From IMG/VR virus record IMGVR_UViG_2529292829_000011: 8,710 nucleotides of DNA. One strand, written 5' to 3'. The stretch's first letter is position 1, and each line of letters starts with the position of its first letter. Both the position numbers and the translations under genes were made by a program. Of the stretch, positions 1-8,710 are shown one piece after another. The notes below the pieces were generated by a model. It was given only the letters and a program-made list of their open reading frames with translations. It was not told where the DNA came from and did not search any database. The stretch is from a virus (Duplodnaviria; Heunggongvirae; Uroviricota; Caudoviricetes).

Positions 1-384
1 GCCAAGTCAGGTGGCGTATTCCAGATTGTCCTGGGGGCTGCCGCCATTGCCGGATCATTCTTTACCGCCGGAGCCACCCTTGCAGCATGGGGGGCAGCCA
101 TTGGGGCCGGTGGTATGACCGGCATCCTGTTTTCTCTCGGTGCCAGTATGGTGCTCGGTGGTGTGGCGCAGATGCTGGCACCGAAAGCCAGAACTCCCCG
201 TACACAGACAACGGATAACGGTAAGCAGAACACCTATTTCTCCTCACTGGATAACATGGTTGCCCAGGGCAATGTTCTGCCTGTTCTGTACGGGGAAATG
301 CGCGTGGGGTCACGCGTGGTTTCTCAGGAGATCAGCACGGCAGACGAAGGGGACGGTGGTCAGGTTGTGGTGATTGGTCGCTGA
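1..384 (+). CDS. I: Tail assembly protein I, C-terminal part (5' end lies outside the window)
   Basis: Frame 1 is open from nt 1 to the TGA at 382-384. The translation (AKSGGVFQIVLGAAAIAGSFFTAGATLAAWGAAIGAGGMTGILFSLGASMVLGG...VLYGEMRVGSRVVSQEISTADEGDGGQVVVIGR) matches my recollection of the C-terminus of lambda gpI almost residue for residue. The 60-nt gap to the next start matches lambda I-J spacing as I recall it. The ORF track lists only the part from an internal Met (115-384). Confidence 0.85.
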   Translation, partial: AKSGGVFQIVLGAAAIAGSFFTAGATLAAWGAAIGAGGMTGILFSLGASMVLGGVAQMLAPKARTPRTQTTDNGKQNTYFSSLDNMVAQGNVLPVLYGEMRVGSRVVSQEISTADEGDGGQVVVIGR

Positions 385-444: not shown

Positions 445-3400
445 ATGGGTAAAGGAAGCAGTAAGGGGCATACCCCGCGCGAAGCGAAGGACAACCTGAA
501 GTCCACGCAGTTGCTGAGTGTGATCGATGCCATCAGCGAAGGGCCGGTTGAAGGTCCGGTGGATGGATTAAAAAGCGTGCTGCTGAACAGTACGCCGGTG
601 CTGGACACTGAGGGGAATACCAACATCGCCGGTGTCACGGTGGTGTTCCGTGCCGGTGAGCAGGAGCAGACTCCGCCGGAGGGATTTGAATCCTCCGGCT
701 CCGAGACGGTGTTGGGTACGGAAGTGAAATACGACACGCCGATCACCCGCGCCATCACGTCGGCAAACATCGACCGACTGCGCTTTACCTTCGGTGTGCA
801 GGCACTGGTGGAAACCACCTCAAAGGGGGACCGGAATCCGTCGGAAGTCCGCCTGCTGGTTCAGATACAACGTAACGGTGGCTGGGTGACGGAAAAAGAC
901 ATCACCATTAAGGGCAAAACCACCTCGCAGTATCTGGCCTCGGTGGTGGTGGATAACCTGCCGCCGCGCCCGTTTAATATCCGGATGCGCAGGATGACGC
1001 CGGACAGCACCACAGACCAGCTGCAGAACAAAACGCTCTGGTCGTCATACACCGAAATCATCGATGTGAAACAGTGCTACCCGAACACGGCACTGGTCGG
1101 CGTGCAGGTGGACTCGGAGCAGTTCGGCAGCCAGCAGGTGAGCCGTAATTATCATCTTCGCGGGCGCATTCTGCAGGTGCCGTCGAACTATAACCCGCAG
1201 ACGCGGCAATACAGCGGTATCTGGGACGGAACGTTTAAGCCAGCATACAGCAAAACATGGCCTGGTGTCTGTGGGATATGCTGACCCATCCCGCTACGGC
1301 ATGGGGAAACGTCTTGGTGCGGCGGATGTGGACAAATGGGCGCTGTATGTCATCGGCCAGTACTGCGACCAGTCAGTGCCGGACGGCTTTGGCGGCACGG
1401 AGCCGCGCATCACCTGTAATGCGTACCTGACCACACAGCGCAAGGCGTGGGATGTGCTCAGTGATTTCTGCTCGCGATGCGCTGTATGCGGTATGGAACG
1501 GGCAGACGCTGACGTTCGTGCAGGACCGACCGTCGGATAAGGTGTGGCCTATAACCGCAGTAATGTGGTGATGCCGGATGATGGGCGCCGTTCCGCTACA
1601 GTTCAGCGCCCTGAAGGACCGCCATAATGCCGTTGAGGTGAACTGGATTGACCCGATAACGGCTGGGAGACGGCGACAGAGCTTGTGAGAACGCAGGCCA
1701 TTGCCCGTTACGGTCGTAACGTCACGAAGATGGATGCCTTTGGCTGTACCAGCCGGGGGCAGGCACACCGCGCCGGGCTGTGGCTGATTAAAACGGAACT
1801 GCTGGAAACGCAGACCGTGGACTTCAGCGTGGGTGCGGAAGGGCTTCGCCATGTACCGGGCGATGTCATTGAAATCTGCGATGATGACTATGCCGGTATC
1901 AGCACCGGTGGGCGCGTGCTGGCGGTGAACAGCCAGACCCGGACGCTGACGCTCGACCGTGAAATCACGCTGCCATCCTCCGGTACCACGCTGATAAGCC
2001 TGGTTGACGGCAGGGATCCGGTCAGCGTGGAGGTCAGTCCGTCACCGACGGCGTGAAGGTAAAGTGAGCCGTGTTCCTGACGGGTTGCGAATACAGCGTT
2101 GGGGGCTGAAGTGCCGACGTGCGCCAGCGCTGTTCCGCTGCGTGAGTATCCGTGAGAACGACGACGGCACGTATGCCATCACCGCCGTGCAGCATGTCCG
2201 GAAAAAGAGCCATCGTGGATAACGGGGCGCACTTTGACGGCGACCAGAGCGGCACGGTGAATGGTGTCACGCCGCCAGCGGTGCAGCACTGACGCGAAGT
2301 CACCGCAGACAGCGGGGAATATCAGGTGCTGGCCGTGGGACACGCCGAAGGTGGTGAAGGGCGTGAGCTTCCTGCTTCGCCTGACCGTAGCAGCGGATGA
2401 CGGCCGTGAGCGGCTGGTCAGCACGGCCCGGACGACGGAAACCACTTACCGCTTCACACAACTGGCTCTGGGGAACTACAGGCTGACAGTCCGGGCAGTA
2501 AATGCGTGGGGGCAGCAGGGCGATCCTGCACCACCACCTTCCGGATTAACGCACCTGCAAAACCCGCCACCATTGAGCTGACGCCGGGGTATTTTCAGAT
2601 AACGGCGGTCCCGCGTCTTGCGGTGTATGACCCGACGGTACAGTTTGAATTCTGGTTCTCAGAAAAACGCATCACGAACACAGCACAGGTGGAAAAATCT
2701 GCCCGTTATCTGGGGGCCGGCAGTCAGTGGACTGTCCAGGGGAGCCGGATTAAGCCGGGGACGGATTTCTGGTTTTACGTGCGAAGCGTCAACCTGGTGG
2801 GAAAATCTGCTTTTGTGGAAGCCAGCGGGCAGCCCAGCAATGATGGTGAAGGGTATCTGGAAATTTTCCGGGGGCTGATAGATGAGACGCTTCTTGGTCA
2901 GGCACTGAAAGAGCGCATTGATGCTTCAGCGCTGCGTACGGAGGTCACGCAACTGGAAGAAGACATCCGTCAGCGGATGGACACGGATATCGCAGAAGTG
3001 ACCCGGAAAATCGGGAAGGCGGAAAACACTCTCACGCAGCTGGTTGCGAAAAAGAATGAGGACCAGGCACTGGCCATCGCGCAGGTGAACCAGAAAGTGG
3101 ACCGGGTGAGCAGTGAAATCTCACAGACTGTCAGCCAGGGGCAGTCAGAAAACGCCCGACAGATAGCACAGGTTCGCCAGTACGTGGATAAAAAAGGGAG
3201 TGAAATTACCTCGACCACGGATAAAAAGCTGGGTGATCAGGCCGTGACCATACAGCAAATCCAGCGGGTTCAGTCAGACACGCGCAATGAGCTGAATGCC
3301 ATGTATATGCTGAAGGTGCAGAAAACAAAAAACGGTATTCCCTATGTGGCCGGGATTGGGGCGGGGATTGAGGATGTTGATGGTCAGACCCTGAGTAACA

Positions 3401-4116
3401 TTCTGCTGCAGGCCGATCGCATTGCAATGATTACCCCGGAGAACGGTAACCCCACGCCGCTGTTTGTGGCGCAGGGGAATCAGCTGTTCATGAACGACGT
3501 GTTCCTGAAGCGACTGTTTGCGGTGAGCATCACGTCATCCGGTAATCCTCCGGCATTTTCCCTGACACCGGACGGGCGGCTGACGGCGAGAAATGCTGAT
3601 ATCAGCGGTAACGTTAATGCGAATTCCGGGACGCTCAACAACGTCACGATTAATCAGAACTGCCGGATCCTTGGAAAACTGTCAGCCAGCCATATTGAAG
3701 GCGATATTGTCAAAACGGTGGGTAAGGCTTTCCCGCGAAATGGAAGTTATGCCAGTGGCACGATAACCGTCACGGTTTATGATGATCAGGGATTCGACCG
3801 GCAGATTATCATTCCGCCGGTATTATTTCGTGGTACGAAACACCAGAATTTCAACAGTCATAACCAACAGTCATACTGGTATTCAACCTGTAAGCTGCAG
3901 GTACTGAAGAACGGACAGGAAATCTTTCAGCAACCCGCGACGGATGTCAGCAGGGTATTTTCATCCGTCATTGATATGCCTGCCGGACACGGCCATGTCA
4001 CCCTGACTTTCAATGTTTCTTCATATGGTGCTAATAAGTGGACGCCAACGACCAGTATCAGCGACCTTCTTGTTATTGTGATGAAGAAATCTACAGCCGG
4101 TATCAGTATCAGTTGA
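445..4116 (+). pseudogene. J: Host specificity protein J (tail tip / central tail fibre), disrupted by multiple frameshifts
   Basis: ATG at 445 is preceded by GAGG. The first 280 aa (frame 1, 445-1284) are near-identical to my recollection of the lambda J N-terminus (MGKGSSKGHTPREAKDNLKSTQLLSVIDAISEGP...). The J-like reading then continues in frame 2 (1265-1540, 1685-2056), frame 3 (2004-2222), frame 2 (2261-2581) and finally frame 1 (2506-4116, 536 aa, ending ...[15 protein letters not shown]). Codon-level reading shows short stretches in other frames in between (e.g. MAWCLWDMLTHP in frame 3 at 1257-1292). The 3672-nt span would encode about 1220 aa if intact. Confidence 0.85.
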
Positions 4117-4134
4117 ATTTTATAACCCCAATAC

Positions 4135-4162
4135 GGGCGCCAGAAATGGCGCCTTTTTTATT
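4135..4162 (+). terminator. Rho-independent terminator-like hairpin downstream of J
   Basis: GGCGCC (4136-4141), loop AGAAAT, GGCGCC (4148-4153), a perfect 6-bp GC stem followed directly by TTTTTTATT (4154-4162). Orientation fits + strand transcription; the reverse complement has no trailing T-run. Confidence 0.6.
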
Positions 4163-4783: not shown

Positions 4784-4814
4784 TTAGCCAGGTAACACAG
4801 TGTTATGACAGCAT

Positions 4815-4851: not shown

Positions 4852-7800
4852 ATGGCAGTAAAGATTTCAGGTGTACTGAAAGATGGGGCGGGTAAACCTG
4901 TCGTAAATTGTGCGATTGAACTGCGGGCCAGAAGAACCAGCCCGACCGTTGTGGCGCACGTTGTCGCCACTTGTGTGACGGACAATAACGGTGCTTATGT
5001 GATTGAGGCTGAGCCGGGGTATTACGAGGTTGCGCTTCACCGTAACGGCTGGCAGCCAACCCGTGTCGGGGATATTTATGTGGCACCGACTGATGCACCG
5101 GGGACACTGAATGCGTTTCTGGATGCACCAAAGGATAGTGATTTACGTCCGGAGGTGATGAAGCGCTTTGAGGAAATGGTGGATGCGGTTGCCCGGCAGT
5201 CGGAGCAGGTCACCAATGATCGTGAAAGGGCAGAGGCGGTAGCGGAGGCAGCAACAAACGCAGCGAACTCTGCTCTTGACAGTAAAAATAAGGCAGAAGA
5301 TCTAAAAAATAAGGCACAGCAAAATGCCGAAGCCGCTGCAGAAAGCGAACGACAGGCCGGGCAACATGTCGCTGATGCGCAGAAGATTAAGGGGGATTGC
5401 CAGACGCTGGCGGATAACGTACAGCAGAATGCAGAATCCGTTGCCGAAGATAAAAAGCAGGTGGCACAGCTGGCATCATCTGCCACACAGGATGCGGCCA
5501 GCGCAGAGCAGGCTGTCAAGGATGCTGACTCGATAGTCCGGAAAGCGGTCGATAAACTCGGTGAAGCTGCAACGCTGACCGGCGAGGCAAAAGCCAGCGC
5601 CGAAGCGGCAGCAAAAAGCGAACAGAACGCGAAACAGCACAGGGACGAGGCGCAACGGATAGTTGATGACCTGAAGGGAAGCAATGCTTCCACGACAGAA
5701 AAAGGCCTGGTGCAACTCTGTAGTGATACGGACAACGACAGCGAAGAACTGGCAGCCACACCGAAGGCCGTCAAAACCGTCATGGACGAGACGAAAACAA
5801 AAGCGCCGCTGGACAGCCCGGCATTCACCGGCACGCCCACCACACCAACCCCACCGGACGATGCTGCCGGTCTGGAAACAGCGAACGCGGCATTTGTCCG
5901 CAAACTGCTCGCTGCACTGGTTGACTCGTCACCGGAGGCCCTGGACACGCTGAACGAGCTGGCAGCGGCGCTGGGAAATGACCCGAATTTTGCGACGACA
6001 GTCACCAAAGCACTGGCAGGGAAACAGCCACTCAGTGACGTGTTAACCGCAATCAGTAATCTGGAAGAACGGGCAGATAATCTTCTGTGCTTTAATCAGG
6101 ACGGAAATGCTTCACTGTCTCCACTGTCAGAAAAAGCCCGGTCACTGCTGGCACAGGCCACAGTGGAAGCTATGCGCAATGAGCTTGAGCTGAAAAGCGC
6201 AGCGGTAATGGATATTCAGACAGACATTCACGACAGCACGAAAGGCCGCATTGCGCTTCCCGGTGCGTATGGTTACGGAATGACGGACGCCGGAGCGCGT
6301 TCAATTATTGCCAGCGATATGGCGACTGTAGCCAGAACCGCTCACAACCTGCACCCGGGACGCTATTACACCTTTGCCACACGAACGGAAGAAACAACCG
6401 GGATAACAGAAATTATCTGGCTGGATAATGGCCGGGCCGACAAAACCAGCCAGACAGCAACAAAGCTGGTTCTGTTTTTTGGAAAAGACGGACGGATTCT
6501 TATGACCGTTCGTGGCGATAATATCTCCGCCCCGGTCACCTGGACGAATCTGACGCCACAACTTGGCAATGCAGCACAGAAGGATGCGCAGGAGAATATT
6601 TACGACCGCACCGAAGGCCGTCTGGCGATTCCCGGCATGTTTGGATTCGGGAAAGTATTTTTCATCGGCGACAGGACCGAGTTTAAAACAGAGGCCGATT
6701 TTCTCCGCTGGGTAAAAACGGCAAATCCCGGACGCTATGCCGTTTATGCAGATACAAATGCGGTAATACAGGGCGTGCTGTTCAAGGGTACCGTTGAAAT
6801 TATCTGGCCGGAACCTCAAATCAGCCATGATACGGCATATGTGGCCAAAATCATTATTTTTTACGGTATTAACGGTCATATTTATTACAATCGCTACTGG
6901 ACTACCGGAGGTGGTTATCTGGTTGGCTGGGAAAACCTGAAAGTCAACGAGGCTTCACTCCGGGCACTGATTGAAACCCGAGCGCCACTGAACAGTCCGG
7001 CACTGACCGGAACGCCGTCCACGCCAACACCACCGGATGATGCAGCAGGTAATGAAATAGCCAATGCGGCGTTTGTCCGCAAACTGCTCGCCACGCTGGT
7101 TGGCTCATCACCGGAAGCCCTGGACACGCTGAACGAGCTGGCAGCGGCACTGGGCAATGACCCGAACTTTGCGACAACCGTCACTAATGCACTGGCAGGG
7201 AAACAGCCGCTTAATGACGTGTTAACGGCTGTCAGCAAGATAACACCGGAAGAAAACACACTGCCCTATTTCAGTGCAGATGGCAGGATTTTACTGGCGC
7301 AGTTGTCAGAAAAAGCCCGCGCATTACTGGCACTGGACACACCTGAAGCCATGCGCACGGAGCTTGAACTGAAAGCGGCTGCGACGATGGAACCCCAGAG
7401 CGATATCCGCGACCGCACACCGGGCAGACTGGCACTGTCCGGCATGCATGGATTCGGTCAGGCATTCACCAGTGCCGACGCTCTGACATTTAACGGGCAG
7501 GCCGATTTTGTTGAATGGCTGAAAAAGGCCGCCCCGGGGCGTTATGCGGTCAGTATTGCGGACTCTTCCATGCTGCTGGTTGGCACCAAGAAATTTAACG
7601 GCACCATTGATGTGATGTGGTCGCCCTTTGATAACGATGAGTCGGACACAATACGAAAATTCAAAACACTGCTGTGTTTTAACCAGTATTACGAAGGTGA
7701 GCATAGTATTCATTTCCTGACTTACCGCTTTAGTGGAAACAACTGGAATGCAACAGTAAGCCCTGTCATTTACGACGGCGATTCGCTGGCGTTCTTACTG

Positions 7801-8112
7801 TCCCGGACAGCAGGCTCAGGCTCATATTTCAAATACCCGGCAGTGGGTGTTCCAGTGCTGGCTGTTTATCGCGGAACAACTTCCGGGGATAAAGAAATCA
7901 ATATTGGCCTGGGTGATGTGGTGCAGGGGTCACAACTGGGCGGAGTTAATCTTTCGTGCTTAATATCTTCTGCTGGGGTTGGCTCCTACAATTCCGCACC
8001 GAGTGCAGGAGCTACAGGGTACACTTTCCCGGGGCGTTATATGGCGCTATCCGGGGTCAGGGACTCTAAAGGAATAACCGGTCGTATCTGCCTGTTTGTG
8101 CGCATCGAGTAA
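4852..8112 (+). CDS. stf: Side tail fibre protein (Stf-like), long modular variant
   Basis: Frame 1 ORF 4813-8112. I prefer the ATG at 4852 (MAVKISGVLKDGAGKPV...), because the lambda Stf N-terminus as I recall it begins MAVKISGVLKDG and a G-rich stretch precedes it. The ATG at 4813 lies inside the lom terminator hairpin. The N-terminal ~110 aa are lambda-Stf-like, followed by an Ala/Glu/Lys/Gln-rich coiled coil (about 5200-5700) and two conserved tail-fibre boxes (KAPLDSPAFTGTPTTPTPPDDAAG... and RAPLNSPALTGTPSTPTPPDDAAG...), each followed by ...ALDTLNELAAALGNDPNFATTVT.ALAGKQPL. Confidence 0.9.
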   Translation: MAVKISGVLKDGAGKPVVNCAIELRARRTSPTVVAHVVATCVTDNNGAYVIEAEPGYYEVALHRNGWQPTRVGDIYVAPTDAPGTLNAFLDAPKDSDLRPEVMKRFEEMVDAVARQSEQVTNDRERAEAVAEAATNAANSALDSKNKAEDLKNKAQQNAEAAAESERQAGQHVADAQKIKGDCQTLADNVQQNAESVAEDKKQVAQLASSATQDAASAEQAVKDADSIVRKAVDKLGEAATLTGEAKASAEAAAKSEQNAKQHRDEAQRIVDDLKGSNASTTEKGLVQLCSDTDNDSEELAATPKAVKTVMDETKTKAPLDSPAFTGTPTTPTPPDDAAGLETANAAFVRKLLAALVDSSPEALDTLNELAAALGNDPNFATTVTKALAGKQPLSDVLTAISNLEERADNLLCFNQDGNASLSPLSEKARSLLAQATVEAMRNELELKSAAVMDIQTDIHDSTKGRIALPGAYGYGMTDAGARSIIASDMATVARTAHNLHPGRYYTFATRTEETTGITEIIWLDNGRADKTSQTATKLVLFFGKDGRILMTVRGDNISAPVTWTNLTPQLGNAAQKDAQENIYDRTEGRLAIPGMFGFGKVFFIGDRTEFKTEADFLRWVKTANPGRYAVYADTNAVIQGVLFKGTVEIIWPEPQISHDTAYVAKIIIFYGINGHIYYNRYWTTGGGYLVGWENLKVNEASLRALIETRAPLNSPALTGTPSTPTPPDDAAGNEIANAAFVRKLLATLVGSSPEALDTLNELAAALGNDPNFATTVTNALAGKQPLNDVLTAVSKITPEENTLPYFSADGRILLAQLSEKARALLALDTPEAMRTELELKAAATMEPQSDIRDRTPGRLALSGMHGFGQAFTSADALTFNGQADFVEWLKKAAPGRYAVSIADSSMLLVGTKKFNGTIDVMWSPFDNDESDTIRKFKTLLCFNQYYEGEHSIHFLTYRFSGNNWNATVSPVIYDGDSLAFLLSRTAGSGSYFKYPAVGVPVLAVYRGTTSGDKEINIGLGDVVQGSQLGGVNLSCLISSAGVGSYNSAPSAGATGYTFPGRYMALSGVRDSKGITGRICLFVRIE
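5806..6290 (+). repeat. Intragenic direct repeat, copy 1 (conserved tail-fibre box module inside stf)
   Basis: About 480 nt that re-occur at 6985-7460 with high nucleotide similarity (by eye roughly 85% over the first 260 nt, including identical runs such as TTTGTCCGCAAACTGCTCGC and CCCTGGACACGCTGAACGAGCTGGCAGCGGC). Copy spacing is 1179 nt (393 codons), so the repeat is in frame. Confidence 0.8.
6985..7460 (+). repeat. Intragenic direct repeat, copy 2 (conserved tail-fibre box module inside stf)
   Basis: Second copy of the module described at 5806-6290; encodes APLNSPALTGTPSTPTPPDDAAGNEIANAAFVRKLLATLVGSSPEALDTLNELAAALGNDPNFATTVTNALAGKQPLNDVLTAV...SEKARALLA...EAMRTELELKAAATME. Confidence 0.8.
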
Positions 8113-8125
8113 CGGGGAATAAAAC

Positions 8126-8710
8126 ATGAAAATCAGAGCGGTAAAGGGCATCAGAAACGCCCATTATCTTGAAAATGGTGCGGTTGACTGCGAGGTGTTA
8201 TTTGAAGGTGAAACGGAATTCGTCCCGTATACCGCCATGCAGGATGATACCGCACCGACAGGCCAGCGCATCTGGGAAGAGTTGCAGAACGGCAAATGGG
8301 GCGAAATCGCCCCTTTCACTGTCACGCCGGAACTTATCGCCGCGGCGAAGGATGCCAAAAAGCAGGAAATCGAGGCATGGCGCACAGAACAGGAAGCACT
8401 GCCGTTCACCTTTGAATGGAACGGTCGCACCTGGAACGCTGGCCCCGACTCAATGGCCCGTCTTTATCCGGTAGTAATGGCGGCGAAATCCGATACGGCA
8501 CGAACCGCCCTTGCATGGGGTGATGCCGATAATCAACAGGTGAAACTGTCAATGCCGGAACTGGAAGAACTGGCGGCAGCAATGGCGCAGGCGCAGCTCG
8601 ATCGCAATGACGAGATTTATCGACGTCAGCGGGAGATGAAGGAAGAACTGAATAATCTGGAGGATTTGGGTTCAATCAGGAAACTGGTCGTTAGCTCAGA
8701 AAAACCTTGA
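8126..8710 (+). CDS. Tail-fibre-associated protein of uncertain function (occupies the tfa position; not a canonical lambda Tfa)
   Basis: Complete 194-aa ORF starting 13 nt after the stf stop, with its TGA at 8708-8710, the last three bases of the window. Same length and position as lambda tfa, but the translation does not resemble lambda Tfa as I recall it and lacks the C-terminal W..Y..L..RVD....WP motif of that chaperone family. The C-terminal half is acidic and helix-prone (ELEELAAAMAQAQLDRNDEIYRRQREMKEELNNLEDL). It reminds me of a family of unknown function (DUF4376-type) seen next to enterobacterial prophage fibre genes, but I cannot confirm that without a search. Confidence 0.6.
   Translation: MKIRAVKGIRNAHYLENGAVDCEVLFEGETEFVPYTAMQDDTAPTGQRIWEELQNGKWGEIAPFTVTPELIAAAKDAKKQEIEAWRTEQEALPFTFEWNGRTWNAGPDSMARLYPVVMAAKSDTARTALAWGDADNQQVKLSMPELEELAAAMAQAQLDRNDEIYRRQREMKEELNNLEDLGSIRKLVVSSEKP

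Follow-up and report, generated by a model that had tools for sequence, protein, structure and literature searches.

The tail tip gene J of a lambdoid prophage in the draft genome of E. coli 2785200 is interrupted by 30 missing single bases, and we conclude, with a probability of roughly 95%, that these gaps are a consensus artefact of the draft assembly caused by collapsed paralogs, not a real feature of the genome. The gene itself is almost certainly not truly inactivated. The stretch of DNA that we analyzed (the window, 8,710 nt) corresponds to bases 2–8711 of GenBank contig AQDU01000090.1 (67,225 nt, assembly GCA_000355575.2), to which an exact match of the fiber protein assigned it. It holds the tail-tip end of the prophage, with the gene order I, J, lom, side tail fiber and DUF4376, as follows:

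1–384, plus strand: 3′ part of tail assembly gene I; the contig starts inside the gene, and PF06805 is found in sister loci
445–4116, plus strand: J, a lambda-type tail tip / host specificity gene, fragmented by 30 missing bases
445–1252, plus strand: N-terminal part of J, free of indels in the alignments
1253–2528, no strand assigned: stretch of J with all 30 one-base gaps, read here as a collapsed two-copy segment
2529–4116, plus strand: C-terminal part of J with the Ig-like, tail-tip and receptor-binding domains, 0 indels and 2 mismatches against the sister prophage L129
4184–4783, plus strand: lom (Ail/Lom outer membrane protein), intact
4852–8112, plus strand: side tail fiber gene (stf-like), 1086 aa, intact and identical in sister genomes
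8126–8710, plus strand: DUF4376 ORF, 194 aa, intact

Beyond the DUF4376 ORF the contig continues with a tRNA-Ser(tga) gene and then hyaABCDEF-appCB. The tRNA gene (minus strand, 8853–8940 of L046, the locus that holds the window) lies about 140 nt past the end of the window and separates the last prophage ORF from hyaA. The prophage adjoins this tRNA-Ser gene, which is probably serT, and the hya operon, and the layout of prophage, tRNA-Ser and hya is repeated in five other assemblies. The longest ORF for the fiber gene begins at an ATG at 4813 and encodes 1099 aa; GenBank proteins of the identical gene start at 4852 and have 1086 aa, and the Pfam phage_tail_N match starts at residue 1 of the 1086-aa form. 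Just past gene I (398–425; aaaccgcctgcgggcggttttgtc) and just past J (4125–4160; gggcgccagaaatggcgcctttttta) lies a G+C-rich inverted repeat followed by a run of T, and judging by their sequence both elements look like intrinsic terminators.

As deposited, J is not one ORF: 445–1284 and 2506–4116 are open, with short fragments between them, making about six ORFs. We aligned the window J globally to four intact J genes, those of E. coli razor3, phage PhiR49_2, IMG/VR allele L074 and the sister prophage L129. Each alignment contained 30 gap columns, all of them one-base deletions with no insertions, and none gave a single uninterrupted J ORF. The alignments to L074 and L129 placed the gaps at the same 30 positions of the window:

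1253, 1291, 1473, 1488, 1547, 1584, 1601, 1654, 1685, 1687, 1690
2010, 2015 (twice), 2034, 2060, 2083, 2088, 2099, 2111, 2119, 2129
2197, 2208, 2288, 2292/3, 2294, 2333, 2335, 2528

A sequence-only reading of this DNA had described repeated frame hops in J within 1250–2535, and the 30 deletions between 1253 and 2528 confirm it; the places that it named as examples (1249–1260, 1287–1297, about 1472–1480 and about 1486–1496) are each one base short in our alignments. It had also called the flanking parts of J, lom, stf and the downstream (DUF4376) ORF intact, with which the ORFs, domain matches and alignments all agree. Because every event is a minus-one deletion, the reading frame walks from 1 to 3 to 2 to 1, and because 30 is a multiple of 3, the C-terminal part of J is back in the starting frame. 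The 30 events fall within about 1.28 kb; over the 13,996 nt that come after on the contig, comparison with the sister prophage shows 10 mismatches and no indel. This clustering is real and extreme, far beyond chance.

The bases are already missing from the record as deposited and were not lost afterwards, as the fragments of J are the submitter's own GenBank proteins for E. coli 2785200, EMW36606.1 (279 aa) and EMW36608.1 (123 aa). The same proteins rule out that ambiguity codes were stripped by the scanning pipeline. A stripping of ambiguity codes within the submitter's pipeline is possible.

The evidence that carries our conclusion comes from the positions of the deletions relative to natural variation in J. 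We assembled a panel of 84 intact copies (81 distinct) of a 1401-nt J segment from IMG/VR, complete E. coli genomes and phages, whose mutual alignment is gap-free. Of the 30 deletions, 26 could be placed on a column with a MAF of at least 0.05, compared to a null mean of 4.8 and a maximum of 15 in 20,000 random draws (binomial P about 2e-17). A polymorphic column was touched by all 30 deletions (null mean 10.6), and codon position 3 was possible for 25 of them. Sites that vary among other alleles are not an expected target of mutation or of random sequencing error, whereas a consensus made from two alleles would hit them. The sequence-only reading had noted that several indels fall in short homopolymer or dinucleotide runs; such a preference did not hold up, as 14/30 deletions lie in homopolymer runs of at least 2, compared to 40.4% expected (P = 0.30), and only 1/30 in runs of at least 3, compared to 10.2% expected. 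Asking whether indels fall on columns that are variable among intact alleles is a cheap diagnostic that needs no reads.

The retained bases point in the same direction, and from its sequence the window looks like a mixture of two J alleles that occur naturally. Across the retained columns of 1943–2345, two classes of alleles, L129/L130/L074 and L047/L048, are each only 1–2 mismatches from the window, and the two classes differ from one another at 13/18 of the deleted columns in this interval. We then compared the 1401-column segment with one representative of each class: A, the allele of L129, which is the same prophage at the same site, and B, the XH988 allele (L048). At all 64 A/B differences the window carries the A base (26), the B base (20) or a gap (18), and a third state never occurs; a gap is not the uniform outcome, as some of these differences were resolved to one of the two bases. 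The block 2060–2335 contains 14 of the gaps. The window then resembles B across the block 2344–2512 and matches A alone from 2527, the same place at which alleles of the B type diverge strongly. Among pairs of panel alleles, none accounted for all 30 sites. The best pairs explained 18–23 of them, and the best pair for the deleted sites explained 23 with 30 extra differences; the comparison by segments told more.

Filling the 30 gaps yielded a J of 1233 aa with no internal stop. The repaired protein differs from the sister J by 10 amino acids, the nucleotide changes comprise 31 synonymous versus 11 nonsynonymous changes, and all six gpJ Pfam domains are found in order, all above the gathering score. 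A gene that truly carried 30 frameshifts would not look like this, and J is most likely intact and functional in the genome itself.

Relatives of the prophage also have an intact J. An identical fiber protein is encoded in five other assemblies, in each case with the same hya operon downstream of it. L129 and L130 carry an intact J of 1233 aa, and L131 and L133 carry an intact partial J that reaches the contig end, so that the comparison with sister genomes carrying the prophage, which the sequence-only reading had put forward as a check, came out in favor of an intact gene. The deleted form itself was found nowhere else. None of the 30 deletion-junction 16-mers occurred in 132 other loci, and a 56-mer spanning six of the gaps had no match in IMG/VR or in JGI metagenomes. 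Among 11,764 J places in complete E. coli genomes, the best were 97.2–97.3% identical to the deleted form and still had about 29 extra bases. GTDB representatives, scanned with the C-terminal part of J, gave no matches other than lambda contamination and J genes that are more distant. Of 5,426 complete E. coli genomes, 4,563 contain this J segment, at a median of 2 and a maximum of 11 places per genome, and E. coli genomes typically have 2–3 copies of J.

These searches brought up several other loci. One assembly from the same project, also made with Celera (L132; AQEY01000007.1, GCA_000355295.1), has the same serT-hya prophage, with J beginning at the contig end. Its J lacks three single bases, at 994, 1291 and 1562, in runs of G4, A2 and A6, and these bases are present in L131 and L133, which are independent assemblies of the same allele. 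This suggests that, in this data set, consensus errors recur systematically in J close to contig ends, although the context in L132 is homopolymeric. Identically scoring lambda-type J genes turned up in assemblies of the unrelated bacteria Neobacillus, Leeuwenhoekiella, Shewanella, Pseudomonas, Oceanobacillus, Desulfosporosinus and Bradyrhizobium (L011–L019). Several of these contigs are about 48.4–48.5 kb long, and the coverage, for contigs whose names state it, is mostly near 1 (9.6 for one Pseudomonas contig), and the J genes on them look like contamination with phage lambda DNA. An Escherichia-type J was also found on two contigs of a 'Clostridiales bacterium' MAG bin (SFGJ01000067.1 and SFGJ01000116.1), one of them with 95% identity to the window J over query residues 2–132; mis-binning or contamination is the probable source.

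How could an assembly lose bases in this way? E. coli 2785200 is an ETEC isolate of Sahl et al., 2017, whose isolates were sequenced with 100-bp HiSeq 2000 reads and assembled with Celera Assembler (PMC5469772). The deletion stretch lies 1.2–2.5 kb from the end of the contig, which starts in gene I. We propose that strain 2785200 has two or more lambdoid prophages, with J genes that would be about 97–98% identical over roughly codons 270–700, and that a single multi-alignment took in the reads of both copies. Discordant columns would then have left the consensus empty, either through a gap call or through an ambiguity code that was later dropped, such that each SNP between the copies became a one-base deletion. 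That a gap and not a base would be emitted at SNP columns we infer by reasoning and from the Celera consensus alphabet. The series of deletions would mark the stretch in which the two copies, about 2.3% apart, are similar enough to merge, and it would end past about 2530 because the host-range / receptor-binding part of J is too diverged to co-assemble; beyond that point the contig would follow the unique serT-hya prophage. The tight clustering, which the sequence-only reading had considered unusual for a real inactivation and for an artefact alike, is what such a collapse predicts. In the literature on SNP columns emitted as gaps we found only the general signature of collapsed repeats, namely that dense, correlated SNPs in a read alignment mark collapsed non-identical repeats (Phillippy, Schatz, and Pop, 2008; PMC2397507).

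The start of the window differs from the rest. Relative to L129, the first 1250 nt contain 31 substitutions and no gaps, and the 6.2 kb past 2530 contain only 5 substitutions. The substitutions in the first 1250 nt reflect either a recombinational exchange of gene I and the N-terminal part of J or a chimeric contig start that derives from the other prophage copy. For a collapse to leave these 1250 nt free of gaps, the copies need to be identical there or the reads need to come from a single copy.

Genuine inactivation of J, by 30 real one-base deletions in a cryptic prophage that kept lom and the fiber genes, is extremely unlikely. In its favor, the GenBank entry as deposited does contain the deletions, its submitter gave the fragments protein annotations of their own, and prophage decay is common in E. 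coli. Neutral decay, however, should leave a mixture of substitutions, insertions, deletions and nonsense codons, and we saw 30 deletions, no insertions and, after repair, no stops, along with the 31 synonymous versus 11 nonsynonymous changes in the repaired gene. Mutation has no reason to favor polymorphic sites, yet 26/30 deletions could be placed on them (P about 2e-17), and J is intact in the sister prophages at that chromosomal site, with the deletion junctions in no other J examined. The sequence-only reading had left two options, inactivation in a cryptic prophage and an assembly or consensus artefact; the gaps at polymorphic sites, the intact sisters and the stop-free repair weigh against the former, and the latter is strongly supported. 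A form of real deletion that would respect the polymorphic columns is recombination between paralogs, which would yield a 1.3-kb heteroduplex from which aberrant repair removed one base per mismatch. We know of no pathway for such mismatch-directed one-base loss in a heteroduplex and regard this scenario as scarcely credible; if it were true, the gaps would be a scar of one-base deletions exactly at SNPs between paralogs.

Two further explanations also place the fault in the data. Random error of the sequencing chemistry, through miscalled homopolymers or sparse coverage at the end of a contig and with no second gene copy involved, would fit the location of the region 1.2–2.5 kb from the contig end and the three single-base losses in G4, A2 and A6 runs in the J of the sister-project assembly (L132). 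We nevertheless consider it very unlikely: the Illumina platform makes few indel errors, the deletions are not enriched in homopolymers (14/30 vs 40%, and 1/30 in runs of at least 3), and the first 1250 nt, which are closer to the contig end, have no indels. Random errors would also include substitutions and insertions and would not coincide with columns of SNPs between alleles. A mixed culture of two strains, in which two alleles of the same prophage J and not paralogs of one genome were merged, would produce the same signature of gaps at SNPs between alleles, and is a variant of the same artefact rather than biology. Two mixed strains should leave traces at other loci as well, but the neighboring 14 kb, unique chromosomal genes among them, has 0 indels and only 10 mismatches to the sister, and several copies of J within one genome are the norm, leaving a mixed culture with only a slim chance. 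The collapse of paralogous J copies within one genome remains our preferred reading.

If so, when an older overlap-consensus assembly of short reads merges a pair of prophage paralogs, ordinary SNPs between the copies can end up as a run of frameshifts. An intact tail-tip gene is thereby made to resemble a heavily decayed pseudogene, and its fragments become separate database proteins, as with EMW36606.1 and EMW36608.1. Counts of pseudogenes, 'cryptic prophage' calls and pan-genome gene clusters derived from such assemblies would inherit the error.

Three known systems help to place the window J. It resembles lambda gpJ (TipJ family) in its position after I and before lom and stf and, only after repair, in its domain order of FNIII-A_GpJ, Phage-tail_3, Ig_J, Ig_J_second, Phage_Tail_Tip and Ig_GpJ_C. 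Unlike lambda gpJ, the deposited gene is split into about six ORFs, and its receptor-binding C-terminal part is a less common allele, whose best full-length match among complete E. coli genomes is only about 86% identical. Decaying cryptic prophages, such as the defective lambdoid prophages of E. coli K-12, contain frameshifted pseudogenes, and the window shares with them a tail gene interrupted by frameshifts next to neighbors that are open. Unlike such pseudogenes, the window J has no insertions, nonsense codons or nonsynonymous excess, and its lesions are not common to relatives and lie on polymorphic third-codon positions. The window J is also like a collapsed near-identical repeat (PMC2397507): the sequence is multi-copy, the copies are a few percent apart and the stretch adjoins a contig end, the disturbed positions are exactly the differences between copies, the second of which we infer here, and the unique flank is clean. 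In the usual description of a collapsed repeat, the SNPs appear in the read pile-up and the consensus takes one base; here the deposited consensus lost the base, and frameshifts were the result.
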